Assembly (NCBI GenBank): GCA_964633905.1
Contig: CAZWIT010000002.1
Location: 63,209 to 127,208, forward strand
DNA: 64,000 nucleotides
Source: an uncultured Gammaproteobacteria bacterium
Lineage (GTDB): Bacteria; Patescibacteriota; Patescibacteriia; UBA1558; GWA2-36-10
Direction of reading: 5' to 3'
Every line of letters starts with the position of its first letter. Position 1 is the stretch's first letter. The notes under the pieces are model-generated. The model made no database searches, was not told the origin of the DNA, and saw only the letters and a program-made list of their open reading frames with translations. Shown one piece after another: positions 1,376 through 63,859 of the stretch. The translations under genes and the position numbers were made by a program.

Positions 1376-2899
1376 ATGTCACACGATTATTTAGTAAAAA
1401 GTTTAGAAAAAAAATTAGCCGACTTGGATTTAAGTAGTGCCATTGAAACTGTTGGCGAAGTTATTGAAGTAGGCGATGGTATTGCTCGCGTCTCTGGCTT
1501 GTCAGATTGTATGTCCAGTGAAATGTTGGAATTCACCAGCAAGGATGGCACTAAAGTTTTAGGTTTAGCTCTAAATCTAGAAGAAAATGTTATTGGTGCT
1601 ATTGTTTTGGGTGATTATCAGCTTTTGCAAGCTGGCGATAAGGTAAAAGGAACTAAAAGAGTATTAGAAGTGCCAGTGGGCGAAGCGGTCATTGGTAGAG
1701 TTGTTGATCCTTTAGGTAATCCTTTAGATGGCAAGGGCCCAATTAAAACTAAAAATTTTTATCCAGTAGAAAAAATTGCACCAGGTGTTATTACTCGTCA
1801 ATCAGTAACTCAGCCTTTGCAAACTGGTATTAAAGTAATTGATGCTATTATTCCGATTGGAAAAGGTCAACGTGAACTTATCATTGGCGATAGACAGACT
1901 GGTAAAACAGCTATTGCTATTGATGCTATTATCAATCAAAAAGGTAAAGATGTAATTTGTATTTATGTAGCTATTGGGCAAAAAGAATCTAGAATTGCTA
2001 AGATTGTAGCTAAGCTTGAAGAAACTGGTGCTATGGAATACACTACGGTAGTTTTGGCTGGCGTTTCAGCTCCAGCAGCTTCATCCTACATTGCTCCTTA
2101 TGCAGGGGTAGCTATGGGTGAATATTTTATGGATCAAGGTAAAGATGTGCTAGTAGTTTATGATGATTTGTCAAAACACGCTGTGGCTTACAGACAGATC
2201 TCTTTATTATTACGTCGGCCACCAGGACGTGAAGCTTATCCAGGCGATGTCTTTTATTTACATTCTCGTTTGTTAGAAAGGGCAGCAAAACTTAGCCCAG
2301 AATTTGGCGGCGGATCACTTACTGCTTTGCCGATTATTGAAACTCAAGCTGGTGATATTTCTGCCTATATTCCAACTAATGTTATCTCTATTACTGATGG
2401 ACAAATATTTTTAGAAACAGATTTGTTTTATAAAGGTATCAGGCCAGCTTTAAATTCTGGCTTATCGGTTTCCCGTGTTGGTTCAGCTGCTCAGATTAAA
2501 GCAATGAAAAAAGTAGCTGGCCGTTTAAAGCTTGATTTAGCTCAATTTAGAGAATTGGAAGCTTTTGCCCAATTTGGTTCAGATTTAGACGAGGCCACCA
2601 AGCAACAATTAAATCGGGGAGCGCGAGTGGTAGAAATTTTAAAGCAAAGCCAGTATTCACCATTATCTCAAGGCAAACAAGTGGCCATACTTTATGCAGT
2701 AATTAATGGTTATTTAGATACAGTGCCAGTTGAGAATATTGCTGACTTGGAGCAGAAATTATACCAGAATTTAGAATTACAAAATTCAGATTTACTCAAA
2801 AAAATTGAAACAGAAGGACAGCTAGATGAAGCAATGGAAGATAAATTAAAACAAATTATTAGTGATTTAGTAGAAGCTAATCAAGTAAGCAAGAAATAG
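1376..2899 (+). CDS. atpA: ATP synthase F1 subunit alpha
   Basis: Walker A GDRQTGKT, strong family-wide conservation. Confidence 0.97.
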
Positions 2900-2905
2900 A
2901 AAGTT

Positions 2906-5252
<2,347 letters not shown>

Positions 5253-31177: not shown

Positions 31178-34100
31178 ATGAAAAAAATATCCATCCTAGT
31201 AATTTTTTGGCTGCTATTGGGACTGATGTTTGCTCTGCCAGCTTGGGCGCAGGGTGCTTTTGGTACTAATACTTTGACTAATCTGGCTGTTTATAGTACG
31301 CGTAGCATTACTGATACTATAGTTGGTATAGTCAATATTATTTTAGGCTTTTTGGGTGTGATTGCAGTTTTACTTTTTTTGTATTCTGGTTGGCTGTGGC
31401 TATCTTCTAGAGGGGATGCACAAAAGATTCAAAAATCTAAGTTGATTATGGCTAGTACCGTAATTGGCTTATTAATTATTTTTGCTTCTTATGCTATTAC
31501 CAATTTTATTATTGCTAGAATAGCCGAAGAAACCGGCACTATTGAAACTACTCCGCCAGGCTATGTACCACCTGGACCAGGACCTGTTACTTGTCCTTTG
31601 CCCGCCAATGATGGTGATATAGATGTATGTCAAGTTTATCCCGGTGCGGCTGCTCCAGGTAATTATTTTACGATTACAGGTTGGAACTTTGGTAATTATG
31701 TAGCGGGCAATAGCCGAGCAGTATTACGTGATAATTTGGGTAATGAAACAGCTTTAGATTTAGTTAGTTGCGATGGCAATCCAATTTGGAATTTAATTTA
31801 TACTACGCCAGATGGAGATAATAGTTTTTATGAAATTAGAGCAATAGTGCCAGATATTACGGCCGCTGTTTATGATGTTAGAGTTTATCGAAATGCCACT
31901 GTCTTTGATCAAGAGACCAATAATTCATTTACAGTTTCTCCGCCTGGAGCAGTTGGTTTGAATATTGCTTGTTTGCGTCCAAGCTTTGGTGCAGCTCGTC
32001 CAACGCCTGAGAGTGTGATAGCTGAGGGTATTAATTTTGGTACTAGTGCAGGTACAATTAGTATGAAAGGCTGGGTCGGGAGTAGCGAGGCCGATATTAC
32101 TGTTCCTAGTGGCACTTGGGATGATACTTTGATTACTTTTCAAATTCCAGATAATGCTTTAGCGAGTGATGTTAAAATTACTCATAATGCAGATATCAAT
32201 AATTGGGATACTCGTTATTTCATGGTTACTTGCGGTGGTGATGATGGTAATTGTTCTTCTGGTTGCTGTAGTAATTATAATGAATGCCGTCCTAATACAA
32301 ATGAGTTTTGTCCAGCTGGCGCTAATTTCAGTAGTGCGCCACGCATAGATGCTATTAGTCCTAATAATGGTGCAGCTGGAAATTTAGTAACTATTTTAGG
32401 GCAAAACTTTGGTACTGTTGCCGGTACGGTTTGGTTTAATGGTGCTAGCGGTCCGATTCAAGGAGTTGTACCATCAATTCTCTACCCAGGTATTTGTCCA
32501 GCCGGTAATTATTGGTATGATAATTATATAATTATTGGTGTGCCAGTAGGCACTATAGACGGCTCGGTCTATATTATGACTGGAGCAGCTATACCTGAGC
32601 AGAGTAATAATGCATCTTTTGATGAAAATGGAATTTCGCGCCCAGGTTTGTGTCAATTAAATCCTATTGGTGGTAGCTTCCAAAATGAAACTAGAGTTAA
32701 TACAACTGGTATTAATTTTGCCAGCACTGATAAAATTTTATTTTCAGTTGATCCAGATATTACTGGTAATGATTATATTTATACTTCTCCGAATGAAGCC
32801 TCGGCTGTAGTACCAAATTTACAAAACGGTCAAGTTGGTGTTCAAATAAAAAATAACGCTGACCAATATAGTAATCCTTTGCCTTTTCAGGTAAGTGATA
32901 GTTTTTTTGGTCAACCACGCATTGTTACCACTTCTCCTAATGGTATTAAGAGCGGTGTTTATATTACTATTTTTGGTACAAATTTTGGAAATTTAGCTGG
33001 CCAAGTGTTATTTAATGATGTAAATAATGCCACTAATCCAGATCTAGTTGGCATTGTTCCGAGTAATCCAATGTGCCAAAATGCTTATTGGCAGAACAAT
33101 CAAATAGTAGTAGAAACTCCTAATTTGCCAGATATTAGCAATGGCAGTCCTTATGAAATAGTTGTTAAGCGAGCTGATGCAGTAGTAAGCGAAGCTTATG
33201 ATATTAATTATAATACTAGTTTAGAAGACGGAGTCTTTTTGTGTGCCGTAGTACCAGATAATGGCCCTAATAATTTTTCGCCAGTTGATTTTTATGGTTC
33301 GGGCTTTAGTGATAATAGTGTTAGAATTCAATTTAATGGAGCAGCTAATACTGTTAATCCGACAGGCTTTAATGATACTCAAGCTTGGGATACGACAGTG
33401 CCTGGTGATGCCTTGAGTGGTCAAGTAATTTTGCAATCGCAAGCTGATAATGGTACTTGGCTTAATAGTAATGCTTTAAATTTTAATATTGCTGGCTGTT
33501 CTCAAAATTCCGATTGTCAGGGTTCAGAGCAATGTTGTCCTGGTAATTTTGGTAACTATTGTTCTCTAAGTTGTGATCAAATTTTAAGCTGTACTTATAC
33601 CTCTACTTTGCATACCCAAAATATACCTTTTAGTATTAATTATAATTATAATTGTGATACTGATTGGCAGTCACCAACTCCTTGGCCAGATGGATTGTTA
33701 AGTTATTCCTCACAAGATAATTATGTAGACTCTAATATTTCTTTTACCTTTACTCGTAATATTGTTGATGCTGATTTAGAGCCAGCTGCTCATAAAATTA
33801 GGTTGTATGAATGTGATAACAGGAATACTAGTTGTGATGTAGAAATAAATATTGCTACCAATATTATTGGTCAAAATAGTAATCAAGAAGGCGTGCTTAT
33901 TAATCCGCTTAATAATTTAGCAGAAAATACTTGGTATAAGGTGGTTTTAGTAGGTGACTTTAGAGCTGAAGGTGGCAATGAATACTGGAATACTAGTTAT
34001 GATCCTGATTTACAAGTTGTTGGTGGTTGGAATTTTAGAACTAAATCAACTGACTTGGCTTGTGAAATTAGTAGTATTCAAGTAACACCGCAGTCAGCAG

Positions 34101-37100
34101 CTGCTAATTTCTATTTAGGTAATTCTCGAGATTTTTATTCAGCACCAACTGCGAATAATTGTAATTTATGCGGTGGTAATTATAATTGGACTTGGCAATT
34201 GACTAATCCACCTAATCCAGATGCCGCTAATGTGACCGATCCATCAAATATTGGCACTAATATTGGTCATACTCGTTTGACCTCTGATTTACCAATAAAT
34301 TATGCAACTGAATTTTTATCTCCTAATTATGTAAATTTGCAATGTAATGTTAATCAGGCAATTGCGCCTAGTTTTTCACAGCCAGTAGTTTTGGCTCCAA
34401 TCTTATTGGTAGAAAATTATGGCCCACTTTGTTCAGCTTCTTGTGACAATGGCACAGTTTGGATAGATTTTAATACACAAATTGCTGCGACCTATTTAAA
34501 TAATACTTATTTTTCAATTCAAGATTGTAATAATGACGCTAGTTGTGCTAGCCCATTGGCTACAAATTTAGTAAATAATATAGCCTTACCACAAGATAGT
34601 AATTTTAGAATAACTTTGCCTCACGCTGCTTTTACTCATAATCATTATTATCGTGTTCAAGCTTTGGATACAATTAGAAATATTCACGGTTATCAATTAG
34701 ATGATACTAAGACTTGGGTTTTTGGTGTAGGCGATGCATCTTGTGAAGTGGCTAGCGTTAATTTAAATCCTAGCAATGCTACTGTGGCAATTAGTAATCA
34801 AATTGCCTATGGTGCTCAGGCTTATTCTGATCCTAATGCTTGTTATATCCATGGTCAGCCAATTGATTGTTTGGCTGCTAATAATTGTACTTGGTTATGG
34901 GCTTCTTCTAATAATACTATTGCTACTATTGAAAATAATAATAGTAGTGTGAGTAATGCTACTGGTGTGGCTGTGGGCACTACTAATATTTCAGCCAATG
35001 CTCGCCAGGCCGGCGTTGATCATATTGATAGTGGTATTTTGACAGTAGTGGAATCAATTACAACTCCAGTTGATCCGCACTTACCACCACGGGTAGAAAA
35101 TATTAGGCCACTTGATGGTGAGACTAACATTTGTCCTAATGCCGCTATTACTATGGATTTTACTGAGTTAATGGATCCAGCTAGTGTGATGGCTCATGTA
35201 AAATTGTATGCTCAGCCTGATAATTATGATGTTAATGGTGACGGTGTTGCTGATTTACAAGACGTTGCTTTAATTTCAGGGAATATTAATTTATGGGATT
35301 TGGTAGATGTTAATTATGGCGTTACGCATTTTGACAGTAATAGTGATAATATTCCAGATAAGACAACGGTAATTTTATATCCTACAAGTTTATTACGTAT
35401 TGTTAATAAAATTAATCATGTAGTGGTACAAGGCAATGTTACTAGTATTTATAATATTGCCTTAGATAGTGGACAATATAATTTTGAGGGCCAGATTCCT
35501 GATATGCCTGGTAATGATAGCTATTCTTGGCATTTTACAACGGGAGCTGACTTATGTCGTATTAGTTATATACAGACTATCCCAACTAGCGATTGGTTTT
35601 TGTGTGCCGGGGATAATTGTGGCATTACTGACGTTGAACCAGCCACGCCCGGTCATCAACATAGCTATACGGCTATTGCTAGAGATGTGCGTGGCATCGC
35701 TTTAGCAGGCTCTATTAGTTATGATTGGTCATTAAATAATGATGGTATTAATTTATTATTAAATAATGATGGTTCGCCAGCTGCTGGGGCTACACCTAAT
35801 GTTCATTTTAAAGTTGCTAATGAAAATGGACGGGAAACTTTAATTGTTAATGCTCAAGGTAGCGATGTTGGTTCGGCTAGCGCTAATATTGGTATTGATG
35901 TATTTTTATGTGAAGTACCTTGGCCTGGTCCTGGTTTGAATTTATTTCCTTGGCAGGATGATGCTTATAATTTTTCTACTTACTATTGTCCTGATGTTGA
36001 TCAAAATGACGGTATTGCTTCTTTGCCAATTTTAAATAATAATCCGATTGAAAATCCTAATCATCCAGCTAGTGTATTACGCGAGTATATTTTTTCAGTA
36101 CCAGCTCCAGTCAGCATGGATTCAGGTAATAATTTTGGTAGTTTATCTACTAGTAAATATAATCAAACAGATAGTTGGTGGTCGCATTTATTTAAAAAAG
36201 TATCTAAGCCTTGGCAGGCATTAGTAGCCAGAGGTCAGGGTATTGGCACAGACATTATTGCCTTGAGAATCATGTCCAATCTTAATCATTTATCGGTAGA
36301 GGATTGGTATGAATTAAATGCTCCTAACCCAGACATTGGGGGCACTTCTTTGGAGGTTGATGGTTATCCAGCTTTGCAAGTAGGAAATACAGTTTATATT
36401 TCAGCCTTTAATTTAGATGATGCGGGCAATGTTCGTTATACTAATATTTATATTTTAGCTTATAATATTGGCGCTAGACCAACAACAGTAGAGATTTTTA
36501 GTCAGCTACTTGATAATTTTAGATTAAATACTAATGTTGATCAGCAAAATAATATTTGCGTCGGCGGTGTAGATGCAGGCAATGTTTGTAGTAGTGATTT
36601 TGATTGTGCTGACCATAATTGTCAGTCTCAAGGCTTAAAATTACGTCGTGATTTAGTGCGTTTGGGAGACATGTTAAATATTAATAGTAAATTAATTGAG
36701 TATGGTGAAACTCACAAGGCCTGTAGTAATAATAGTTTAACAGCTTGTGTTAATAATTCTCAGTGTCCAAATGGTGGTACTTGTATTAATTATTATCCAC
36801 TGCTTAATGCTGGTACTTTTGTGCGCGGCCAATCTAATAGTTCTTGGCCTTCTTGGCAACAGACTTTGGCTACTGGTTTAAGTGGCTCTTTGCCATTGGA
36901 TCCTATTAATTTATTTAATGCTTGCGGTGATCCAGGTTTTGATCCAAATACTTGTTGGAACGAAGAAGCTTTAGAATTTTCTTGTCCAATTGGCTCTTTG
37001 ATTTATCATTATCAAAGAAGTGAAACTGGCGATGGTTATGATTTGTCGGCTAATTTTGAAAGTATTAGTAATTTTGCTACCTTATTAGATCCTATGGATA

Positions 37101-40100
37101 GTAATATTAATACTGAACTTTTATATTGTAACGCCGCTAGTGCTAACTTAATCAACCCTCGTTGTGGTAATGGTAGAATAGATTGGGTTTGTTCAAATAG
37201 AAATTATAATAATCAAACTGATTGTGAGGCTAATAGCGGAACGTGGTATGAAGAGGAATGTGACGGTGGTTATCAAGATAATCAATGTAATCCAATTTTA
37301 AGTGCTACTTATGGAGTACATACCTGGTGGAACGAACAAAGAACAGGTTGTTATCCAGCTGGTAGTATTGTAGGAGGTAATTCCGTAGAATGTACTTGGT
37401 ATGAGCCTGATGTAGCAACCATGTTTGCTCTATGCGGAGGCTATTGTGGTAATAATGCTTTAGAAAGTAATTATGAAGATTGTGAAAATATAAATGGCAA
37501 TACTAATTTTGGCGGAGTGAATTATAGTTGTGCCAATGGCATAGCGCCTACTTGTAGTCCAACTAGCTGTCAAGCTGTTTGTGGTCCTATGCAAACTCCA
37601 GCTGCAGCTTGCGGTGATGGCATTTGGACTGAATTAGTAGAAGAATGCGATGCTAGTGCTCCTAATAATGCAAATGGTTTATCGGAGTTAGATTGTACAG
37701 AAAATGGTAATGTTAGTTGTAATAACAATTGTGAAGCAGTATGTGATACGGGCGTAGCTTATGACGGTCAGTGTGGCGACGGTAATCTTAATAGTGATAT
37801 CAATCCAGTAAGTGGCGATCCTTATGAAGAATGTGATTATGGTGCTTATGCGGTGCCAAGTCCAGCTCAATCATCGCTTACTAACCCTTATACTTGTTTA
37901 CAAAATTGTACTTTTGGTTCAGATTATTGTAATGATACAATTAAACAAGGTGGTTTTGACGAGATTTGTGATACCACTTTAGCTATTAGTCCGACACCAC
38001 CAAATTCTTCTCGTTATAGTCAATATCAGTGCCGTACAGTAAATGACGCAGCTGATCCTTTGTGGACAAAATGTACACCTACAGCCGGCGGTTATTGTGG
38101 TGATGGCACTATTCAAAATGGACAAAATGGAACTTTCGCAGCTGGTGAAATTTGTGATTCTGCTTATCATCCAACTCCAGCAGAAAGCGGCCCAGAAAAT
38201 ACTTACTCTTGTAGTTATACTTGTATGACTAGGACCGGCGGTTATTGTGGCGACACTATTATACAGGATGGTAATAATGGCACTACTGATTATGGTGAAA
38301 CTTGTGATTATGCTGCTTATGCTCCGCCACTACCAGTAGATGCTGATGATATTAATCATCAATATGTTTGTAGTGATGTTTGTTTAGCTGATAGTGGTGG
38401 CTGGTGTGGTGATTCTATTTTGCAGCCTCAATTTGGCGAAGATTGTGATTATGGTAACCCATCAACTCACACTATTCCAGATCCTTGGAATAGTAATTCC
38501 AGTAATCCCTACACTTGTCCTAGTTGTTCCGTTGGTTCATATTGTGGTGATGGTGTTATTGATGTTGCCTATGGCGAGCAATGTGACGCTGGCATGACAC
38601 CACCAGCACGTAAAGTTGAATTAGCGTTTGTTTATGATATGTCGCGTAGCATGCAAACTGCAGCCGCAGCCTTGTGTGGAGTTTTGGATACTTTCTTAGA
38701 TAATTTTGATCCATCAACTACTTTTAGAGTCAGTATTTTCGTTTTAGGTGATGATGCACCAGGTTCTACTGGTAGTCCGCGCACTTTGACACCTGGTACA
38801 AGCGATGATTTAAGAGCACTGACAGATAATGGCACTTGTAGCACAGATGCTCCAGATACAGTTAGTTGTGAGCATAGAAATGTTTATAATAGCTTAGTGC
38901 GTGGTTGCACTGCGCTTTGGGATAGACATGTAGCAGAAATTGCCACTTATAGTGATAGTACTAATCTTAATAAATTTAGATTTTTAAGTTTTTATGATAA
39001 CAATGCTAGTGATCCAGCCTATAATCACATAACTGGCGGCGTAACAAATTTTACCAGTGCTGATGATCATACTAGCTTAAATGGTTGCAATGATGCAGAA
39101 CCGGGTGGTAGATTAGAGAATTGGGGTTATGCTACTGAAAAAATTATTAACAATTATCAGTGGTTAAGTGGTTATCAACGCATAGTTATACCAGTAAGTG
39201 ATGAGTATGCTTGGTGTGGTGGTGATGTAGCTATACCAACAGCAGCAGCTAATGAGAACAATTGCAATACACCAAATACTTGTTCAGGTACTCCGGCTAC
39301 TGGACAACTTGCTAGTGATGATATTATTTCTAGAATTATAAGTTCGGCTACTAATCCGGCTACAAAAGCTTTTGTTAGCCCAGTAATTTTGGCAGGTGCC
39401 GATAATCAAGCTATAGCTTTGCAAGCAGCCAATGCCACAGGTGGTTATATGAGTACGGCTGCTGATGCTAGTTCTTGGAATACGAATATTAATAATATGG
39501 TTGGTGGCGTTTTCTGTGATAGTCATCCAGCTGATGGTGTTATGGATTGTATGTTGCCTGGTGGAGCTCCACCGGCAGCAGGCTTACCAACTTTGTCATT
39601 GCCATATTATTACATATCAAGTGATAGTAATAGTAGCAATAGGAGCGTAACTATAACTCTTGGTGGTACAGCCACTTGGTGGGATGCAGTTTCAAATGAT
39701 CCAACTTGGATTACCAATGTTAGTAAATCTGGCAACACTCTTTCTTTTAGCATAGCGGCTAATACTGGTTCTGTGACCAGAACTGGCTCAATTAAACTTA
39801 CGGCCGGAGCAGCAACTGGGTCACCAATAACAGTCAATCTTAGCATTGATCAATTAGCGCCAGTGCCAGTGCCAACTTTGTCATTACCATATTATACTTT
39901 AGATAGGGACAGCTCGGCAGTCACTATTAGTGTGCCAGTGACTATTGGCGGTTCAGCTACTTGGTGGCAAGCAATTTCTAATAATACGGCTTGGATTAGT
40001 GGTATAAGTCAAGTAGGTAATACACTTTCTTTTAATATAGCTGCCAATACCGGACCGGATAGGACTGGTACAATTTCAGTTAGAGCTGGCGCGCCCACTG

Positions 40101-41848
40101 GTGTGCCAATAGCAGTGACACTGACTATTAATCAAGCAGCGCCAGTAGTACCTCCTGATACAATGCCGCCAACTCCAATTGGAAATACTTTAGTAGCTAC
40201 TCCAGCCGATGGTCAAATTCGTTTAGATTGGGCAGTAGCCACTGATGATAGAGGCGCAGTTATTTATGAGGTAGAAAGATTAGGGCCTACTACTGGAAAT
40301 TATCTAGCTTATTCTAATACCTTTAATCAAAGCGGTTTAAGTAATGGCGTAAGTTATTCTTATCGAGTCAGAGCACGAGATTTAGCTGGTAATATAACGG
40401 CTTGGACAAATACAGCTTCAGCTACTCCTGTTCCAGCCGCTATTCCGCCAATTGCTCCAGCTAATTTAGAAGCTTTTGCACAAGCAGGGGGTATTTATTT
40501 GACTTGGGGCACGGCAACCGTAGGTGATCCAATATCATATTTTAGACTGGAGCGGTCCACTAATTTTAGTTTTTCAACCGTAGATGTGGTTGCTGACATT
40601 AATTTTGCTAGCTTTACTGGTAGCTATACTGATAGTTTTCCTTTAGCTAATCCGACGGTTACTTATTATTATCGAGTAAAGTCAGTAAATAGTGGTAGTG
40701 GTCTAGAGTCTACTTATGTTGGTCCAGTAAATGCTACTATTCCTGATACAACTGCGCCTAGTGTTCCTACAAATTTAACAAGTACTTATTTGAGTGATAC
40801 ACAGTATCGTTTTAGTTGGACAGTTTCAACAGATAATATTGCTATAGATCATTATGAAGTAGAATATCAGGCTGACGCTTTTGTATCTGATGGCACAGGA
40901 ACAAATATTGGTAATCCAACTACCAACTCAATAGATTTTACATTGGATCCTACGGTTGCAACTTATTCTTTTCGAGTACGAGCCTTTGATGCTGGTGGTA
41001 ATCAATCTGCTTGGTCATCAGCGTTAGTAGCTTTTGCTGTTGATGTCTTGCCACCGACTAATCCTACTAATCTTACAGCTTCTGTTTCATTTGGTAATGT
41101 TAATTTAAATTGGACAGCGGTTAGTGATAATATTGGTGTTAGCGGCTATGATTTATTAAGAGCTACTACTAGTGGTGGGCCTTATACTTTAATTGTTTGT
41201 CCCTCGATGTCTTGTAATGTCACTGGATCAACTGCTAGAAGCAACACTTCTGTAGCGCCGGGGACTTATTATTATGTAGTAAAAGCCTTTGATGCTGCTG
41301 GTAATAGATCGGATATTTCTAATCAAATAGCAGTAACAATTTTGCCACCAGCACCACCTAGTGTACCTACTAATTTTACTGGCATGCCAATAGGCAGATT
41401 AGTAAGTTTAAATTGGACAGCTTCTATTGATGATGTATCAGTGACTAATTATGAGGTTCAATATAAACCTAATTTAACTGGGACCTGGACTCTTGTTGGT
41501 AGTCCAACTACTAATGCTCTGAGCTATTCAGTACCAGCTCTAGTTACCCAACCATATTTTCGTGTTAGAGCTAAAGATAATGATAATAATTATTCAAATT
41601 ATTCAACTGAATTGACCGTTACTATTGATGGTACTGGTTGTACTGAAACATTTTGTAATCAATGGGATGCTATTAATAGTGCTAATAGAACTGCATGTGC
41701 AAATCAGTGTGTAAATAATAGCGGTTGTTGTCAAGCTTGCGTAGATCCATATAATTCTTATGTTGGTTGTCGTTTGAATCCTGATGCGGTTACTAATTCC
41801 TGTTCTAGTAGTCAGGTGTCCATGCCATTAGGTGTGCGTTGTGATTAA
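31178..41848 (+). CDS. giant (3556 aa) mosaic cell-surface protein: VirB2/TrbC-like anchor, IPT/TIG-like Ig repeats, CGDG...ECD Cys-rich repeat array, vWA (MIDAS), 2 BACON-like, 5 FN3, Cys-rich C-terminus; putative adhesin
   Basis: Single uninterrupted ORF; domain signatures read directly from translation (see findings). Confidence 0.9.
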   Translation: MKKISILVIFWLLLGLMFALPAWAQGAFGTNTLTNLAVYSTRSITDTIVGIVNIILGFLGVIAVLLFLYSGWLWLSSRGDAQKIQKSKLIMASTVIGLLIIFASYAITNFIIARIAEETGTIETTPPGYVPPGPGPVTCPLPANDGDIDVCQVYPGAAAPGNYFTITGWNFGNYVAGNSRAVLRDNLGNETALDLVSCDGNPIWNLIYTTPDGDNSFYEIRAIVPDITAAVYDVRVYRNATVFDQETNNSFTVSPPGAVGLNIACLRPSFGAARPTPESVIAEGINFGTSAGTISMKGWVGSSEADITVPSGTWDDTLITFQIPDNALASDVKITHNADINNWDTRYFMVTCGGDDGNCSSGCCSNYNECRPNTNEFCPAGANFSSAPRIDAISPNNGAAGNLVTILGQNFGTVAGTVWFNGASGPIQGVVPSILYPGICPAGNYWYDNYIIIGVPVGTIDGSVYIMTGAAIPEQSNNASFDENGISRPGLCQLNPIGGSFQNETRVNTTGINFASTDKILFSVDPDITGNDYIYTSPNEASAVVPNLQNGQVGVQIKNNADQYSNPLPFQVSDSFFGQPRIVTTSPNGIKSGVYITIFGTNFGNLAGQVLFNDVNNATNPDLVGIVPSNPMCQNAYWQNNQIVVETPNLPDISNGSPYEIVVKRADAVVSEAYDINYNTSLEDGVFLCAVVPDNGPNNFSPVDFYGSGFSDNSVRIQFNGAANTVNPTGFNDTQAWDTTVPGDALSGQVILQSQADNGTWLNSNALNFNIAGCSQNSDCQGSEQCCPGNFGNYCSLSCDQILSCTYTSTLHTQNIPFSINYNYNCDTDWQSPTPWPDGLLSYSSQDNYVDSNISFTFTRNIVDADLEPAAHKIRLYECDNRNTSCDVEINIATNIIGQNSNQEGVLINPLNNLAENTWYKVVLVGDFRAEGGNEYWNTSYDPDLQVVGGWNFRTKSTDLACEISSIQVTPQSAAANFYLGNSRDFYSAPTANNCNLCGGNYNWTWQLTNPPNPDAANVTDPSNIGTNIGHTRLTSDLPINYATEFLSPNYVNLQCNVNQAIAPSFSQPVVLAPILLVENYGPLCSASCDNGTVWIDFNTQIAATYLNNTYFSIQDCNNDASCASPLATNLVNNIALPQDSNFRITLPHAAFTHNHYYRVQALDTIRNIHGYQLDDTKTWVFGVGDASCEVASVNLNPSNATVAISNQIAYGAQAYSDPNACYIHGQPIDCLAANNCTWLWASSNNTIATIENNNSSVSNATGVAVGTTNISANARQAGVDHIDSGILTVVESITTPVDPHLPPRVENIRPLDGETNICPNAAITMDFTELMDPASVMAHVKLYAQPDNYDVNGDGVADLQDVALISGNINLWDLVDVNYGVTHFDSNSDNIPDKTTVILYPTSLLRIVNKINHVVVQGNVTSIYNIALDSGQYNFEGQIPDMPGNDSYSWHFTTGADLCRISYIQTIPTSDWFLCAGDNCGITDVEPATPGHQHSYTAIARDVRGIALAGSISYDWSLNNDGINLLLNNDGSPAAGATPNVHFKVANENGRETLIVNAQGSDVGSASANIGIDVFLCEVPWPGPGLNLFPWQDDAYNFSTYYCPDVDQNDGIASLPILNNNPIENPNHPASVLREYIFSVPAPVSMDSGNNFGSLSTSKYNQTDSWWSHLFKKVSKPWQALVARGQGIGTDIIALRIMSNLNHLSVEDWYELNAPNPDIGGTSLEVDGYPALQVGNTVYISAFNLDDAGNVRYTNIYILAYNIGARPTTVEIFSQLLDNFRLNTNVDQQNNICVGGVDAGNVCSSDFDCADHNCQSQGLKLRRDLVRLGDMLNINSKLIEYGETHKACSNNSLTACVNNSQCPNGGTCINYYPLLNAGTFVRGQSNSSWPSWQQTLATGLSGSLPLDPINLFNACGDPGFDPNTCWNEEALEFSCPIGSLIYHYQRSETGDGYDLSANFESISNFATLLDPMDSNINTELLYCNAASANLINPRCGNGRIDWVCSNRNYNNQTDCEANSGTWYEEECDGGYQDNQCNPILSATYGVHTWWNEQRTGCYPAGSIVGGNSVECTWYEPDVATMFALCGGYCGNNALESNYEDCENINGNTNFGGVNYSCANGIAPTCSPTSCQAVCGPMQTPAAACGDGIWTELVEECDASAPNNANGLSELDCTENGNVSCNNNCEAVCDTGVAYDGQCGDGNLNSDINPVSGDPYEECDYGAYAVPSPAQSSLTNPYTCLQNCTFGSDYCNDTIKQGGFDEICDTTLAISPTPPNSSRYSQYQCRTVNDAADPLWTKCTPTAGGYCGDGTIQNGQNGTFAAGEICDSAYHPTPAESGPENTYSCSYTCMTRTGGYCGDTIIQDGNNGTTDYGETCDYAAYAPPLPVDADDINHQYVCSDVCLADSGGWCGDSILQPQFGEDCDYGNPSTHTIPDPWNSNSSNPYTCPSCSVGSYCGDGVIDVAYGEQCDAGMTPPARKVELAFVYDMSRSMQTAAAALCGVLDTFLDNFDPSTTFRVSIFVLGDDAPGSTGSPRTLTPGTSDDLRALTDNGTCSTDAPDTVSCEHRNVYNSLVRGCTALWDRHVAEIATYSDSTNLNKFRFLSFYDNNASDPAYNHITGGVTNFTSADDHTSLNGCNDAEPGGRLENWGYATEKIINNYQWLSGYQRIVIPVSDEYAWCGGDVAIPTAAANENNCNTPNTCSGTPATGQLASDDIISRIISSATNPATKAFVSPVILAGADNQAIALQAANATGGYMSTAADASSWNTNINNMVGGVFCDSHPADGVMDCMLPGGAPPAAGLPTLSLPYYYISSDSNSSNRSVTITLGGTATWWDAVSNDPTWITNVSKSGNTLSFSIAANTGSVTRTGSIKLTAGAATGSPITVNLSIDQLAPVPVPTLSLPYYTLDRDSSAVTISVPVTIGGSATWWQAISNNTAWISGISQVGNTLSFNIAANTGPDRTGTISVRAGAPTGVPIAVTLTINQAAPVVPPDTMPPTPIGNTLVATPADGQIRLDWAVATDDRGAVIYEVERLGPTTGNYLAYSNTFNQSGLSNGVSYSYRVRARDLAGNITAWTNTASATPVPAAIPPIAPANLEAFAQAGGIYLTWGTATVGDPISYFRLERSTNFSFSTVDVVADINFASFTGSYTDSFPLANPTVTYYYRVKSVNSGSGLESTYVGPVNATIPDTTAPSVPTNLTSTYLSDTQYRFSWTVSTDNIAIDHYEVEYQADAFVSDGTGTNIGNPTTNSIDFTLDPTVATYSFRVRAFDAGGNQSAWSSALVAFAVDVLPPTNPTNLTASVSFGNVNLNWTAVSDNIGVSGYDLLRATTSGGPYTLIVCPSMSCNVTGSTARSNTSVAPGTYYYVVKAFDAAGNRSDISNQIAVTILPPAPPSVPTNFTGMPIGRLVSLNWTASIDDVSVTNYEVQYKPNLTGTWTLVGSPTTNALSYSVPALVTQPYFRVRAKDNDNNYSNYSTELTVTIDGTGCTETFCNQWDAINSANRTACANQCVNNSGCCQACVDPYNSYVGCRLNPDAVTNSCSSSQVSMPLGVRCD
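37430..38610 (+). repeat. array of at least 10 cysteine-rich repeats (CGDG/CGNG ... G-E-x-CD), Myxococcus-type cysteine-rich repeat-like, inside the giant ORF
   Basis: Repeated YCGDGTIQ...GEICD, YCGDTIIQ...GETCDY, WCGDSILQ...GEDCDYG, YCGDGVID...GEQCDAG and similar. Confidence 0.65.
38615..39250 (+). other. von Willebrand factor A domain with MIDAS motif D-M-S-R-S-M inside the giant ORF
   Basis: VELAFVYDMSRSMQTAAAAL ... FRVSIFVLGDD. Confidence 0.6.
39583..40155 (+). repeat. two tandem ~95-aa BACON-like repeats (coding), sharing a near-identical 24-nt start
   Basis: LPTLSLPYYYISSDS...ATWWDAVSND..NTLSFSIAANTG..RTGSIKL...ITVNLSIDQ and PTLSLPYYTLDRDS...ATWWQAISNN..NTLSFNIAANTG..RTGTISV...IAVTLTINQ. 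Confidence 0.6.
40150..41630 (+). repeat. five tandem fibronectin type III domains (coding)
   Basis: Recurrent P..PTNLT...L.W..S.D..GV..Y.V.R...G.....YYYRV.A.D.AGN.S motifs. Confidence 0.7.
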
Positions 41849-57327: not shown

Positions 57328-57525
57328 ATGAAGGCTTTGCTAAAAAGGGCCGGCATTTTGCTGGCTGCGAAGCGCGAAGAAATCGGGCGTAAGCGTCGTA
57401 TCAGAGAATTGCGGCAAGAGAGTGAACTTATTTTCCAGGAAGCTATGGGTAGAGTTATCTGCCAAAAGCCTAATGGCGGTACGCTTGCCAAAGAAGCGGC
57501 TGACGACGAAGTCTATTCTGTCTAG
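57328..57525 (+). CDS. small basic protein (65 aa) in a GC-rich (~48%) island, strong SD AAGGAGGAG
   Basis: ORF with canonical RBS spacing, own promoter and own terminator; composition atypical for this genome. Confidence 0.55.
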   Translation: MKALLKRAGILLAAKREEIGRKRRIRELRQESELIFQEAMGRVICQKPNGGTLAKEAADDEVYSV

Positions 57526-57587: not shown

Positions 57588-57616
57588 TTGACAAGTTTTA
57601 ATATTTTTGTTAGAGT
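57588..57616 (+). promoter_or_regulatory. sigma70-like promoter TTGACA-17-TAGAGT driving the GC-rich RNA element
   Basis: Read directly. Confidence 0.45.
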
Positions 57617-57639
57617 GCTTTTTGTCTATATTTTCGTAC

Positions 57640-57905
57640 CTCCAATATTAATGGAAAAACGGAGACAAGCGCCCTGTCATGTTGGTTATGAAAACGTATT
57701 GGCCACCGCGGGGCCTGCGTTTTTGGTCGGTGTGCATCACCTGGCCTAACCCAATTGGGTAGTTCTCCGTTTAGAGGAGATTGAGATAGCGCGCCTGCAA
57801 AACAGGTGAGCCTCGCGTCCGATGGGAACTACGCCCACGATAGTCGCGAGCCGCAGTCTCGCTCCTCGAGGGGTTCGTGCTCGTCCGCGGACCCCTTTTT
57901 TATTT
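57640..57905 (+). ncRNA. GC-rich (~58%) highly structured RNA element (~270 nt) ending in an intrinsic terminator, upstream of rpsL; class unknown (ncRNA or attenuating leader)
   Basis: Multiple helices (CGGAGA...TCTCCG long-range; GCGAG ccgcagt CTCGC; ACCCAATTGGGT; terminator GGGGTTCG...CGCGGACCCC + T6). Confidence 0.45.
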
Positions 57906-58009: not shown

Positions 58010-58438
58010 ATGCCTACAATTCACCAATTATTGAAAAAACCAAGACACACTCCTAAAGCTAAGAGTAAATCTCCAGCTTTAACTTCAGTTTTAAATACTT
58101 TACGTCGTTCCAAAAGAGATTTGCCCAAAGGCAGTCCCTTTAAACGGGGAGTTTGTGTAAAAGTAACTACTACTACTCCTAAAAAACCAAACTCAGCTTT
58201 GCGTAAGATTGCCAGAGTTCGTCTTTCAAATGGTATGGAAGTTACTGCTTATATTCCTGGCGAAGGTCATAATCTACAAGAACATAGCATTGTAATGATT
58301 AGAGGTGGCAGGGTAAAAGATTTACCTGGTGTGCGTTATCATATTGTTAGAGGTGTCTATGATACTCAAGGTGTATCTGGTCGTAAACAAGGCCGTTCTC
58401 TTTACGGTGCTAAAAAAGAAAAAGCAGCTAAAAAATAA
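58010..58438 (+). CDS. rpsL: 30S ribosomal protein S12
   Basis: [12 protein letters not shown] ... highly conserved. Confidence 0.97.
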
Positions 58439-58461: not shown

Positions 58462-58926
58462 ATGCGTGGTAAAGCAGTTTCTAAAAGAGTAATCTCACCT
58501 GATCCAAAATTTCAAAGGGTTGATATTGCCAAATTAATTAACAAAATAATGCGTCGTGGCAAAAAAACTATAGCGCAAAAAATTGTTTATAGTGCTTTTG
58601 AATATATTTCTAATAAGACCAAACAGGATCCAATTGAAATTTATGATACAGCTATGCGCAATGTTGCTCCTAATTTAGAAGTAAAAGGTAAGCGTATTGG
58701 TGGTGCTAACTATCAAGTACCAATGGTAGTAACCGGAGATCGTAAAATGGTTTTGACTCATCGTTGGATTATTATGGCCGCCAGTCATCGTAAAGGTATG
58801 GCTATGCACAAAGCTTTGGGCGAAGAATTAATCGCTGCTTCTAAAAATGAAGGTGAAGCTATCAAAAAACGTGAAGACGTTCAACGTATGGCTGAAGCTA
58901 ATCGTGCTTTTGCTCACTTTGCTTAA
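58462..58926 (+). CDS. rpsG: 30S ribosomal protein S7
   Basis: Conserved S7 sequence. Confidence 0.97.
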   Translation: MRGKAVSKRVISPDPKFQRVDIAKLINKIMRRGKKTIAQKIVYSAFEYISNKTKQDPIEIYDTAMRNVAPNLEVKGKRIGGANYQVPMVVTGDRKMVLTHRWIIMAASHRKGMAMHKALGEELIAASKNEGEAIKKREDVQRMAEANRAFAHFA

Positions 58927-58993: not shown

Positions 58994-61096
58994 ATGCCTA
59001 GAACACATTCTTTAGAAAAAGTCAGAAATATTGGCATTATTGCCCACATCGACGCTGGTAAAACTACGGTTTCCGAGCGCATCCTTTTTTATACTGGTAA
59101 AAAACATAAAATTGGTGAAGTGCACGAAGGGGCTGCCGAAATGGATTGGATGGAACAAGAAAAAGAACGTGGCATTACTATCACTTCGGCTGCTACTACT
59201 TGTTTTTGGGCATTGCCTGATTGGCTAGGTGGTGATAAGGCTAATATCAATATTATTGATACCCCAGGTCACGTAGATTTTACTGTAGAAGTAGAAAGAT
59301 CCTTACGTGTTCTTGATGGTGGTGTGGTAGTATTTGATGGTGTGGCTGGTGTAGAGCCACAGTCTGAAACTGTTTGGCGCCAAGCTGATAAATATAATGT
59401 ACCTCGCATTGCTTTTGTAAACAAAATGGATCGCATGGGTGCTAATTTTTATTATGACCTAGATACTATTCATGAACGTTTAGTCAAACATGCCTTACCA
59501 ATGCAGTTGCCAATCGGTGCGGCTGAAACTTTTGAAGGTATTATCAATCTCTTAGAAAGAGAAGCTTGGTATTATTTAGATGAAGATGGTAAGAATTTTG
59601 AAAAACGTGAAGTGCCAGCTGATATGAAAGATAAGGTAGAAGAATATCGTGCCAAGCTTATTGAAGCTATTGTTGAGAATGATGAAAAATTAATGGATCA
59701 ATATCTTTCTGGTAAAGAACCAGAATTAATTGATTTAAAAAAAGCTTTACGTCAAGCTGTTATTAATAATAAGATTGTACCTATTCTTTGTGGTTCAGCT
59801 TTGAAAAATAAAGGCGTCCAGTTTTTATTAGATGCTGTTACTGCTTATTTGCCATCTCCTTTGGATGTACCTGAAATTACTGGCACTGAGCCCAGAAATG
59901 AAGCCAATGTTATTACTGTTAAACCTGAAGATGGTGAGCCATTTACCGCTTTAGCTTTTAAAATTGCTACTGATCCTTATGTGGGACGACTTACTTTTAT
60001 TAGAGTTTACTCTGGTACTTTAAGCTCTGGTTCCTATGTTTTGAATGCTAATAAAGAAAAGAAAGAACGCATTGGTCGTATTTTACGTATGCATGCTAAT
60101 CACAGAGAGGAAGTTTCTGAAATTTTTGCTGGGGACATTGTAGCGGTTGTGGGTTTAAAAGATACAACCACTGGCAATACTCTATCTGATGTTGACAGAG
60201 CGGTTATTTTAGAAAGTATGGATTTCCCAGAGCCAGTTATTCATGTGGCTGTTGAGCCAAAAACCAAAGCTGACCAAGAAAAAATGGGCATGGCTTTGTC
60301 AAAACTAGCTGAAGAAGATCCTACTTTTACAGTTAGATCAGATGAAGAAACTAATCAAACTATTATTGGTGGTATGGGCGAACTACACCTTGATATTATT
60401 GTTGATCGTATGCGTCGCGAATTTGGTGTAGAGGCCAATGTTGGTGCTCCACAAGTAGCTTACAAAGAAACTATCAAAGCTTCAGCTGAGGGTGAGGGTA
60501 AATATATTAAACAATCAGGTGGTCGCGGACAATATGGTCATTGCTGGTTAAGATTAGAGCCATTAGAACGCGGTGCTGGTTTTGAGTTTGTTGATGAGAT
60601 TAAAGGTGGTTTGATCCCTAGAGAATTTATTGCTCCAATTGAAAAGGGTATTAAAGAAACTTTAGATAATGGCGTTTTGGCTGGTTATAAAGTAGAAGAT
60701 GTTAGGGCAGCTGTTTATGATGGCTCTTACCATGACGTTGACTCTTCGGAAGCTGCTTTTAAGATTGCAGGTAGCATGGCTTTTAAGGCTGCCTTTAATA
60801 AAGCTAAGCCAATTATTTTGGAACCAATTATGAAAGTAGAAGTGGTAACTCCAGAACAATATATGGGCGATGTTATTGGCGATATTAACTCCAAACGTGG
60901 TCAGGTAAATGAAATGATAGATAGGGCTAATGCTAAAGTAATTCATGCTTTTGTACCGTTATCAGAAATGTTTGGCTATGCTACTTCTTTACGGTCAATG
61001 ACTCAAGGTAGAGCTAGTTATAGTATGGAATTTTATCAATATCAAGAAGTGCCAACTAATATTGCTGAAGCAATCAAGAAAAAAAATAACGAATAA
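58994..61096 (+). CDS. fusA: elongation factor G
   Basis: [10 protein letters not shown]1 box, 700 aa. Confidence 0.98.
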
Positions 61097-61107
61097 ATTA
61101 AATTATT

Positions 61108-61146
61108 CAGCCCAAGTGTCTTTTAAGCGTTTGGGCTGTTTTTTAT
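61108..61146 (+). terminator. Rho-independent terminator (CAGCCCAA ... TTGGGCTG + T-run) after fusA
   Basis: Hairpin plus TTTTTTATT. Confidence 0.75.
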
Positions 61147-61199
61147 TATAACAATTTTGGGTTAACAAAAAACCCCATTTATGTAATAGAGTTTTTTGT

Positions 61200-61760
61200 T
61201 CATCTGAAGCCACTAGATCTTAATAGCTAGAGAGCTATAACCTAGTGGACTCGGATAAAGGGGAGAAACTGTTGGCTGGCGGCGGGTCGCGTTGAACGCG
61301 ACCCGCCGCACTGATGCGTTATTCGGATGCTTCTCCCTTTGACTATTTTTACCTGTAGTCAGCAGGATTCCGTTGCCCCGGAATGACGGGAGTTGTTTGT
61401 GAGGATTACCGGATATTATGCGGCCTCCGGAGAGTCGCGGGAACTACCCGACTACTGGGCCTATGGTTCGAACAGTCCAAACATCACGATCCTTTCTGCT
61501 GCACCCTCTTGCAGCAAATGGGTCCTGAAGTACAGGAGTGGTTGCGACCTTATATGGTTTCCGGGTATTATCGGCCCCCGGTGGATCTGGTCGCACGCAG
61601 TTCTTGGGCGGGCGCTGCGCGGTCGTATTTAACCGCGAGCAAAATTGTGCCGATGACTGCGTTTTTTAGACCACTGGCCTAGAGCAACAGTCGAATCACT
61701 ACAATCTCCCTTCTTTTCGGTTTAGCGGAGCGCATGAGCGCTCCCGTTTTGTTTTTTTAC
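61200..61760 (+). ncRNA. GC-rich (~57%) noncoding island inserted between fusA and tuf; candidate large structured ncRNA of unknown class, ending in intrinsic terminator (GGAGCGC atga GCGCTCC + T-run)
   Basis: 13-bp GC stem GCGGCGGGTCGCG ttgaa CGCGACCCGCCGC; GGGGAGAAAC...GCTTCTCCC helix; CCACTAG...CTAGTGG helix; no convincing ORF. Confidence 0.4.
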
Positions 61761-62094
61761 CAAACTGTATCACAGGTTTTGTGGATGACAGTCTGGCAAC
61801 TGCGGGTGTTTAGCCATCTTAGAGCATTCAACCCGCCTTTAAAGGCTAGTGTTTTACAAACACTGTAATGGAGGTAAGGATATAAGCTGATGCTTATATC
61901 AGGTGGTAAACTCGAAATTATCAAGCCGTAAAGCCTGATAAAATCAGGGTTGTAGGACCTGTTCTTAGTCCTCCAATACAGTATTTGTAAAAAAGCCTTT
62001 ATTTATTGGTTTTTTAAGAGCAATAGAGCATTATATCATATAATTAATATTTTGTCAATAGTATTGTAGCCATAAATAAATTTAAAATATTAAT

Positions 62095-62123
62095 TTGACA
62101 AAGAGCTATTTTTCCACTAATAT
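62095..62123 (+). promoter_or_regulatory. sigma70-like promoter TTGACA-17-TAATAT
   Basis: Read directly upstream of 62146 ORF. Confidence 0.4.
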
Positions 62124-62145
62124 ATGAACACTTTACCATAAAATT

Positions 62146-62490
62146 ATGTTAAATGTTCAAAACCTGGAAGCAGTACTAAAATTAGTCGCCCAAACTAAGG
62201 ATCGAGTGATTATTTTATCAGAAAATTATGATCCATTGGTGATTATGAATTTAGAAAACTACAGGGATTTATTAGCTAAAAATACTGTAAAAAAGGGCAA
62301 TGGTCAGCAAGTAGTTTTAGACAATATTAATAAGGACATTGCTTTATTGCATGCCAGTGAAAATGATGTTCCAGATTTAGCCGACTATAATTTAGATCAG
62401 TTTAAAGTAGAGGAAGATAATGCTGCTAGTGAAAATAAACCAGTAGATACCGAAGAAGAAGAAAAATATTATTTAGAACCAGTTGATTAA
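62146..62490 (+). CDS. Phd/YefM-like antitoxin-fold protein with acidic C-terminal tail; orphan (no toxin gene adjacent)
   Basis: DRVIILSENYDPLVIMNLENYRDLLA resembles the Phd/YefM N-terminal strand-helix; tuf follows directly. Confidence 0.45.
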   Translation: MLNVQNLEAVLKLVAQTKDRVIILSENYDPLVIMNLENYRDLLAKNTVKKGNGQQVVLDNINKDIALLHASENDVPDLADYNLDQFKVEEDNAASENKPVDTEEEEKYYLEPVD

Positions 62491-62671: not shown

Positions 62672-63859
62672 ATGGCAGAAGTATTTAAAAGAGAAAAAAC
62701 TCATGTCAACGTTGGTACTATTGGCCACGTTGATCATGGCAAAACCACTTTAACAGCCGCTATCTTAAAAGTGATTAGCGCAACTGGTGGTGTGGCTCAA
62801 CAAAAAAATGTTGACCAAATTGACGCTGCTCCTGAAGAGCGCGAACGCGGTATTACTATTGCTACCGCTCACGTGGAATATGAAACTGAAAAACGTCACT
62901 ATGCCCACGTTGACTGTCCAGGTCACGCTGACTATGTCAAAAATATGATTACTGGTGCCGCCCAGATGGATGGTGCCGTTTTGGTAGTTTCAGCTGCCGA
63001 TGGTCCCATGCCTCAAACTCGTGAGCATATTTTGCTTGCCCGTCAGGTTGGTGTGCCTTTCATCGTAGTCTATTTAAATAAAATGGACCAAGTTGATGAT
63101 CCTGAGCTAGTCGATTTAGTAGAAGAAGAAATCAGAGATTTATTGAAAAAATATGAATTCCCTGGTGATAAAACTCCTATTATTCGTGGTTCAGCCTTAA
63201 AGGCTTTGGAAGACCCTGCTGGCGAAGCTGGTAAATCAATTACTGAATTACTAAAAGCTTTGGATGATTATATTCCAGATCCAGTTCGTGATACTGAGCA
63301 TCCTTTCTTATTACCAATTGAAGACATTTTCTCAATTGAAGGTCGTGGTACAGTAGTTACTGGTCGTATTGAACGTGGTTTAATCAAATTAAACGAAGAA
63401 GTAGAAATCGTTGGTTTGCATGAAACCAAAAAGACCGTGGTTACTGGTATTGAAATGTTTAACAAGCAATTAGAAGAAGGTCGTGCTGGTGATAATGCCG
63501 GTTTGCTTTTACGCGGTACCAAAAAAGATGAAGTTGAACGTGGTCAGGTTTTAGCTAAACCTGGTAGTATTACACCTCATACTGACTTTGAAGCTAAAGT
63601 TTATATTTTAAGCAAAGAAGAAGGTGGTCGTCATACTCCATTTTTCAAAGGCTATAAACCACAGTTTTACATCCGTACTACTGACGTTACTGGTGAAGTT
63701 ATTTTACCAGAAGGTACTGAAATGGTAATGCCTGGTGACACTATTAATTTAACTATTAAATTAATTCATCCAGTCGCTTTAGAAGAAAAATCACGTTTTG
63801 CTATCCGCGAAGGTGGTCATACTGTTGGCGCTGGTACTGTTACCAAAATCATTAAATAA
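62672..63859 (+). CDS. tuf: elongation factor Tu
   Basis: [18 protein letters not shown] motifs. Confidence 0.99.

Follow-up and report, generated by a model that had tools for sequence, protein, structure and literature searches.

A predicted two-layered structured-RNA locus between fusA and tuf in a narrow clade of Patescibacteria

A GC-rich stretch of DNA with no credible protein-coding gene lies between fusA and tuf in a Patescibacteria (candidate phyla radiation, CPR) genome, and it raises the question of what such an island encodes and how it came to lie there. The DNA analysed, called the window throughout, is a 64,000-nt stretch (positions 63,209 to 127,208 of contig CAZWIT010000002.1, GenBank assembly GCA_964633905.1) with an overall GC content of 35.4%; the closest relatives of its fusA are named Komeilibacteria, Falkowbacteria or "Patescibacteria group". 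An initial annotation had described one plus-strand gene for a large RNA, or else the remnant of a mobile intron. Our analysis points to another arrangement, whose mechanism we hold at a probability of roughly 0.5: a clade-restricted, non-coding structured-RNA locus that would consist of two layers, a resident leader RNA read from the minus strand and a GC-rich core.

The composition of the island was confirmed, at 52.6% GC over 61200-61760 and 53.9% over 61257-61725, although the figure of 57% first given was not. Nor is there a credible open reading frame (ORF) in it, as had been said: the overlapping 99-aa and 79-aa ORFs that start at 61383 and 61393 have no Pfam match and no conserved frame, and they are broken by frameshifting indels. 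For comparison, the closer fusA proteins were ranked by identity and their contigs fetched as loci L083 to L096; between the window and L083 (97% fusA identity), the 99-aa ORF (61383-61682) has four indels of 1, 2, 1 and 3 nt, and tblastx of the core against L085 returned no conserved reading frame. The folding signal is strong. Against dinucleotide-preserving shuffles, in which GC content is thereby controlled, the z-score is -6.1 (plus) and -7.4 (minus) for 61190-61770, and -10.7 (plus) and -10.8 (minus) for 61196-62022. The self-complementary elements first noticed by eye were all recovered, namely the 13-bp stem at 61279-61291/61297-61309, the GGGGAGAA/TTCTCCC helix, the CCACTAG/CTAGTGG helix with its nested hairpin, and two palindromes, at 61882 and 61954. 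Fold scores and the compensatory changes given below thus agree with the initial description of a strongly structured, non-coding island. The parts of the locus to which we refer are as follows.

62058-62030, minus strand: sigma-70 promoter, TTGACA-17-TATAAT with a TG extension, directed into module B
61841-62005, minus strand: module B, a multi-helix junction RNA of ~165 nt, nine aligned copies
61801-61840, minus strand: pre-B hairpin GCGGGT...ACCCGC, the best conserved piece between the window and L083 (1 mismatch in 39)
61200-61256, minus strand: hairpin P1, stems CATCTGA/TCGGATG and CCACTAG/CTAGTGG with a variable loop, ten copies in relatives
61257-61362, strand not assigned: 5' domain of the core, with helices P2, P2a, P2b and P3
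61258-61267/61331-61340: P2, in the core 5' domain
61279-61291/61297-61309: P2a, the 13-bp GC stem, in the core 5' domain
61316-61330: P2b, in the core 5' domain
61341-61346/61355-61360: P3, in the core 5' domain
61363-61725, strand not assigned: central and 3' domain of the core, with hairpin H5 and the conserved motif ACCACTGGCCTAGAGC
61727-61758, plus strand: GC hairpin GGAGCGC-ATGA-GCGCTCC followed by CGTTTTGTTTTTTT, which reads as an intrinsic terminator
61162-61189, plus strand: TTAACA-16-TAATAG, a weak promoter-like sequence

The first part of the answer comes from the minus strand. The sole perfect promoter of the region, which the initial annotation missed, is the one at 62058-62030: it was the only 12-of-12 sigma-70 match in a promoter scan of 5.5 kb, and it is conserved in L083, L084, L085, L091, L092 and L095. 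The TTAACA/TAATAG sequence to which the supposed plus-strand gene had been assigned has a 16-nt spacer, falls below the 9-of-12 threshold of the scan and is not conserved in L083; it is probably no functional promoter. Module B begins ~20 nt past the minus-strand promoter, which looks constitutive. Its RNAalifold structure has 47 pairs, with 95% of cells paired, and 17 of the 47 show two-sided compensatory changes, against 9.1±1.8 in shuffles (none of 500 reached 17) and 1-4 in slid controls. All nine copies fold better on the minus strand (z of -7.3 to -11.8, versus -3.1 to -7.5 on the plus strand), and since the shuffled means are equal on both strands, composition does not explain this bias. 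The helices shared by both senses hold 18 minus-only and 7 plus-only wobble pairs, and conserved G·U pairs occur in the minus sense only. B', as the module is called in the leader RNA, also carries invariant unpaired nucleotides, and it has ORFs downstream of it in relatives.

Hairpin P1 completes the leader. Its ten aligned copies share conserved stems and a conserved internal loop around a variable terminal loop, and when they are read on the plus strand they give 26 A·C against 11 G·T, which favours the minus sense. P1 and B are as structured as the core at a host-like GC content of 36-42%. The scan gave no minus-sense terminator in the stretch from B to P1, nor farther on up to the fusA terminator. 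In relatives, B' and P1' form a structured, covarying element between the promoter and the start codon of the downstream gene; in the window no ORF follows P1'. P1 and module B are thus parts of a conserved minus-strand leader RNA and not of one plus-strand gene driven from TTAACA. The further structured sequence that had been noted up to ~62000 is present as well, as module B of this leader and not as a continuation of the island.

How far does the element extend beyond this genome? A comparison with relatives, as suggested at the outset, recovered it with compensatory changes in its helices in L083 and L085. The whole long form, with P1, core and B, is present in L083. In L085 (88% fusA identity) there is a copy of the GC core that is ~55-60% identical, then B, then a second unit of P1 and B without a core. 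A short form, in which B follows P1 directly with no core, was found in L084 (90%), L090 (89%), L091 (88%), L092 (87%) and L094 (87%), and in the last two a mini-hairpin of ~50 nt occupies the slot between P1 and B. Two held-out copies of B were picked up by the covariance model, in L095 (85% fusA identity, 97 bits) and in L096 (82%, 67 bits), where the EF-G cluster P0063 has the source name Komeilibacteria RIFOXYC1_FULL_37_11. Every relative sampled down to 82% fusA identity therefore has the leader; L093 (96%) is outside these counts because its contig ends before the element. B' is found in about eleven loci, and the core in three lineages only (window, L083 and L085). No homolog of the element was found by blastn and nhmmer in 80 GTDB fusA loci with at most 76% fusA identity, motif scans of IMG/VR viral contigs for B, H5 and P1 gave no match, and a scan of JGI metagenomes for B gave two contigs only, with a motif layout as in L084 and L087. 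A weak match to the B' model was seen in L026 at 3467-3623 on the minus strand (21 bits, E of ~0.07), in the long fusA-tuf spacer of a metagenome-assembled genome of Uhrbacteria; it could be a very distant homolog of the leader, or chance.

Among these copies, B falls into two paralogous subtypes, an L-type in long forms and an S-type in short forms, with both in tandem in L085. Since the subtypes track the two forms, the long form is not a recent insertion into the short allele. This bears on whether the core could be a far-diverged representative of some known class, such as a group I or group II intron (ORF-less or permuted), an OMEGA or HEARO guide RNA, RNase P, tmRNA (transfer-messenger RNA) or 6S RNA. 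Its presence or absence at one precise site between P1 and B does resemble intron-plus and intron-minus alleles; however, because of the differing B subtypes, we met no core-less allele identical to the flanks of a core-bearing one. The Rfam check proposed in the initial annotation also returned no known family: with Rfam 15 (including RNase P, tmRNA, SRP, 6S, OLE, GOLLD, ROOL, raiA, HEARO and group I/II introns) there was no match at the gathering threshold in the whole window, and a search of 61000-62200 on both strands at E<=10 gave matches at chance level only, the best being sR40 at 20.7 bits against a cut-off of 50 bits. The Intron_gpI, Intron_gpII and group-II-D1D4 models had no match on either strand at E<=10, and the homologous loci L083-L085 had no Rfam match. 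ARAGORN detected no tRNA or tmRNA, no GUGYG or domain-V-like sequence was seen by eye, and no IscB, TnpB or reverse transcriptase (RT) gene lies nearby. No intron-like feature was found, so that the idea of a mobile-intron remnant is not supported, and membership of a known class is the least probable of the explanations that we weighed. The phage and plasmid collections searched with blastn in distant mode held no similar DNA, and the window has no second copy of the element and no repeat of the template-repeat/variable-repeat (TR/VR) type.

We then come to the core, 61257 to ~61725, which fills the slot exactly between P1 and B. Between the window and L083 its substitutions amount to 8.8%, about fourfold less than the 36.6% at four-fold sites of fusA, a low divergence that could partly reflect recent transfer and not selection; the four-fold sites of rpsL and rpsG stand at 16-21%, and the adjacent linker (61716-61800) at 49%, where the sequences are effectively unalignable. 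A covariance model of the window and L083 (R1) finds the L085 core at 48.7 bits (E of ~1e-9). Over the core 5' domain together with P1, five helices with 47 pairs show 16 two-sided changes and 96% of cells paired across window, L083 and L085, against 5.7±1.9 in shuffles and 1-3 in slid controls, a count that comes from three independent sequences in an alignment fitted to the model. Farther along, the upper stem of H5 (61556-61587) covaries through CCGGG/CCCGG, CCAGG/CCTGG and CCTGG/CCAGG in four copies, and its loop GGCC (61573-61576) may pair with a conserved GGCC at 61676-61679 as a possible pseudoknot. The terminator-like hairpin that had been noticed after the core (61727-61744, with its T-run) was recovered by the terminator scan; within the otherwise unalignable 61716-61800, L085 too has a hairpin and T-rich tail, and L083 a weak one.

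In L085 the core has an internal partial duplication (7496-7655) with a P3-like hairpin GACTA...TAGTC, a second hairpin and T-run, a second H5 (7555-7587) and a second CTGGCCTAAA motif. Separately, a TAAAGG direct repeat at both core junctions of the window was considered as a target-site duplication and rejected, as it is not conserved in L083 or L085.

These rates have to be set against the possibility that the core represents foreign DNA in decay, such as a dead cargo gene of high GC content or other acquired junk, with a structure that is incidental to its GC content. The slot does hold GC-rich protein genes in relatives, the distribution of the core is very narrow, and it is absent from L091 although the fusA of that locus is 98% identical to that of L085. 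Decay does not agree, however, with substitutions ~4x below fusA four-fold sites and far below the unalignable linker alongside, with helices kept by two-sided changes at ~55-60% sequence identity, or with z-scores that were taken against dinucleotide-preserving shuffles. Similarity to any cargo protein was not found by tblastn, and with tblastx negative as well the dead-gene version was dropped. We consider decaying DNA very unlikely, and the core itself, on comparative sequence analysis, to be a genuine orphan structured-RNA element of cargo-like composition in a cassette hotspot.

The evidence for such a hotspot comes from what follows P1' in relatives. There, within ~50 nt, stand a ribosome-binding site (RBS) and a gene on the minus strand whose GC content is 55-63%, against 38-47% for the genomes; the short form lies upstream of GC-rich minus-strand genes in L084, L085, L090, L091, L092 and L094. 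Their products are small secreted, lipo- or membrane proteins without a known family in Pfam or PHROGs, one HTH_17 protein excepted. Two of the cargo families are found in more than one genome, at 52% and 37% identity, and are therefore real genes. Turnover is rapid: L085 and L091 have fusA genes that are 98% identical and yet carry different cargo, with only one shared block, which starts at P1. Similarity between the window and L083 likewise starts exactly at 61200, left of which L083 has a membrane-protein gene and the window has none, and in L090 two copies of P1 (7991-8044 and 8831-8883) flank a gene for a secreted protein of 219 aa. This turnover and these limits of similarity mark P1 as the cargo junction, and B' with P1' as the resident leader of a cassette hotspot. 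High GC, taken at first as the signature of an RNA gene, does not by itself have that meaning here, as the same slot in sister genomes holds protein-coding cargo of 55-63% GC. Since the core shares the GC content of the cargo, while P1 and B are structured at host-like GC, its GC richness is probably owed to a cargo-like origin no less than to structure.

The first of the recurring families is a Trp/Cys-rich protein of ~150 aa (L084 6709-7167 and L090 7485-7940, 52% identity), and the second a signal-peptide protein of ~190-220 aa (L090 8135-8794 and L092 7988-8554, 37%). Neither has a relative in Pfam, PHROGs or viral contigs, and a search of the 152-aa L084 cargo protein against a set of 5.8 billion proteins returned only itself. 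On the minus strand of the window at ~61143-61176, TGTTATAAT (an extended -10) stands beside the motif TTATAACAAT, and the latter is part of the cassette promoter module in L084 and L090; the pair may be what is left of a cargo promoter that once stood between fusA and P1.

Such a hotspot invites comparison with an integron-like cassette platform, in which the promoter and B would correspond to Pc/attI, P1 to an attC-like site and the core to a captured non-coding cassette. P1, with its conserved stems, internal loop and variable terminal loop, occurs at each of the cargo junctions that we examined; the cargo is without exception oriented like the leader promoter; cargo and core share a foreign-like GC content of 54-63%; and, as described for L085 and L091, cargo differs between genomes with 98% identical fusA. 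Against this, P1 has no RYYYAAC/GTTRRRY core sites, since all copies read CCTCAYYTGAAG ... TCGRATGAGG with no AAC/GTT, and no integrase, transposase or RT was found in 40 window ORFs or in the called genes of the related loci (L083-L096). Several cargo genes have promoter and terminator modules of their own, the block of B1, core and P1a travels together in L085, and P1 may be a mere hairpin of a 5' untranslated region. We find the integron-like explanation doubtful as an account of the locus, while a capture platform of this kind is compatible with the two-layered model.

The strand of the core also bears on the two-layered model. The main alternative is that the core is an independent plus-strand RNA of ~560 nt, running from P1 to the terminator at 61727-61758 and antisense inside the leader; it could be a cis-antisense regulator, acting by transcriptional interference or duplex formation, or a free-standing small RNA (sRNA). 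Besides the possible recent transfer and the small, model-fitted alignment mentioned for the core, several observations weigh against our model at this point. Wobble pairs in the core lean to the plus strand, with 29 G·T against 4 A·C in the curated helices and 9 against 4 in the independently covarying ones; a plus-sense hairpin and T-run come after the core, canonical in the window and less clear in L085 and L083; the z-score of the core is slightly better on plus (-5.2/-4.3/-6.0, versus -4.2/-4.1/-4.8 on minus); and mirror covariance models for the two strands tie at 48.7 and 47.6 bits.

For a plus-strand RNA it can further be said that helices valid only with G·U (the lower stem of H5, P2b and GATCC/GGGTC) hold in all copies, that its G·U pairs are more numerous and its minimum free energy (MFE) is lower, and that the T-run GTTTTGTTTTTT of the window terminator is common to L085. 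However, the difference in MFE equals that of shuffled sequences and is thus an effect of composition, so raw MFE was discarded as a strand test. No plus-strand promoter was found upstream of P1 in L083 or L085, the weak TTAACA/TAATAG being absent from L083. The only conserved promoter is that of the minus strand, and P1, which such an RNA would include, is minus-sense by its G·U count, as is B. Past the plus-sense T-runs of L085 there are still conserved, duplicated modules. Among unpaired core bases, A makes up 38-52% when the minus sense is read and U makes up 35-47% when the plus sense is read, so that the loops of a plus-strand RNA would be U-rich and not A-rich. In the 99.6%-identical variant L082, one change favours each strand. 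The indications are therefore split: promoter logic and A-rich loops favour minus, and G·U-only helices together with the hairpin and T-run favour plus. A plus-strand gene remains a serious candidate, though we judge it unlikely on balance.

Returning to the two-layered model, it draws on what was observed, namely that the locus is structured and conserved, has a promoter, lies in a hotspot and matches no known family. Its first layer would be a minus-strand leader RNA that begins at ~62022 with B' (~165 nt) and continues to hairpin P1', serving as the resident platform for cargo expression at a hotspot bounded by fusA on one side and by the Phd-like gene and tuf on the other. The second would be the ~470-nt GC core in the slot between B and P1, a non-coding piece of cargo: it resembles cargo in its GC content and in being present in some close relatives and absent from others, yet purifying selection acts on it and its helices covary. 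From the leader promoter, one minus-strand transcript of ~0.9 kb would be made, B'-core'-P1', ending near the fusA terminator, with limits that we infer. The downstream cargo ORF would have been lost in this genome and the transcript would persist; as no cargo ORF follows P1', it would act as a stand-alone, leader-derived structured RNA. A bolder version, to which we give little credence, is that B'/P1 and the promoter form an undescribed platform for cassette expression or capture in a Komeilibacteria-like clade, and that the core, travelling within it as a non-coding cassette, represents a new class of large structured RNA that may be catalytic or may self-assemble.

The genomic setting of the locus is given by the following features.

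58010-58438: rpsL
58462-58926: rpsG
58994-61096: fusA
61108-61144, plus strand: intrinsic terminator of fusA (12-bp stem and T-run), the left limit of the locus
62095-62123, plus strand: promoter of the Phd-like gene, TTGACA-17-TAATAT, back-to-back with the minus-strand leader promoter
62146-62490, plus strand: Phd/YefM-like ORF of 114 aa, conserved, the right-hand neighbour of the locus upstream of tuf
62672-63859: tuf

With fusA ending at 61096 and tuf starting at 62672, the spacer is 1575 nt, which bears out the separation of ~1.57 kb first reported. The accompanying statement that the two genes are normally adjacent does not apply to this group: across 80 related species the spacer is usually 450-700 nt, so the island is not a break in a normally tight junction. 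In every closer relative for which the downstream sequence was retrieved, the Phd-like ORF is present in the spacer. Because its promoter is back-to-back with that of the leader, the Phd-like protein could regulate the leader promoter. The 114-aa protein reaches a Pfam E of 2.5e-5, which is below the cut-off, and has an acidic tail and no toxin partner. DNA identical to the locus at 100% was found in Logan assembly SRR13355620, and at 99.6% in DRR784968; recovery in independent assemblies means that the locus is neither a chimera nor an assembly artefact. The 40 other window ORFs tested are housekeeping genes (ATP synthase, pheS, gyrB, nusG-L11-L1, ftsA/Z, prfA, comEC and others), with no integrase, transposase, RT or Cas gene among them.

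Elsewhere in the window, a second GC island upstream of rpsL (57588-57905, plus strand, 52.8% GC) has a promoter TTGACA-17-TAGAGT (57588-57616) and a strong terminator with a T-run (57868-57897). The island is conserved in L083, where compensatory changes are seen and the terminator stem differs; relatives farther away lack it, and no Rfam family matches it. It looks like an independent plus-strand sRNA gene of ~285 nt. L090 has an ORF-like stretch of 61% GC (2425-3099) between an M50 peptidase gene and rpsL, and as this is placed like the second island of the window, it suggests a second hotspot. Near the second island, a 65-aa ORF (57328-57525, plus strand) with an AAGGAGG RBS and ~50% GC is conserved at L083:2336-2533 and has no Pfam family. 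A giant ORF of 3556 aa (31178-41848, plus strand) is flanked by proteins with Big_5 and TSP3 repeats; this arrangement is typical of CPR surface proteins.

How does the locus compare with systems already described? In being ~0.5 kb long, GC-rich in an AT-rich genome, rich in covarying helices and devoid of an ORF, the core is similar to OLE, GOLLD, ROOL and raiA, and like GOLLD and ROOL, which are linked to prophages, it is linked to variable or mobile DNA. It differs from all four in that it has no sequence or structure match to them, is confined to three lineages of one small Patescibacteria clade, and is lodged inside another conserved RNA (B'...P1') instead of standing alone. With integrons and their attC sites, including CALINs (clusters of attC sites lacking integron integrases), the locus shares a resident strong promoter that is directed into co-oriented, compositionally foreign and rapidly exchanged small genes, and P1, like attC, is an imperfect palindrome at cassette boundaries with conserved stems, an unpaired central spacer and a variable loop. 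Non-coding cassettes are known in integrons. Unlike integrons, it has no attC core sites in P1 and no IntI among the window ORFs or the called genes of L083-L096, its cargo often has its own promoters and terminators, and the 165-nt B' that stands between promoter and hairpin is absent in integrons. B' also resembles riboswitch-type or protein-binding 5' leaders in being a multi-helix junction with invariant unpaired nucleotides, close to a promoter and, in relatives, upstream of ORFs. It departs from them in that it matches no known aptamer family, that no terminator or evident RBS-sequestering platform was found, and that the genes downstream of B' are unrelated to each other, with no following ORF at all in the window. 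B', P1 and the core match no described family, and are a variant within orphan structured RNAs and leader elements.

To our knowledge, Patescibacteria (CPR) are almost unexplored for non-coding RNA. For this clade the locus carries a caution: an island of high GC within an AT-rich genome can point to foreign cargo and not to a structural RNA. It also adds three items that are in no database: the B' leader family, with good covariation, the hairpin P1 and a structured core of ~0.5 kb. P1 marks the point at which GC-rich genes for small secreted proteins are swapped between fusA and tuf. Should the hotspot take up its cargo by site-specific capture, these ultra-small symbiotic bacteria would have a gene-cassette system that is new, and if the core has a biochemical function, it would join the short list of large orphan bacterial RNAs.

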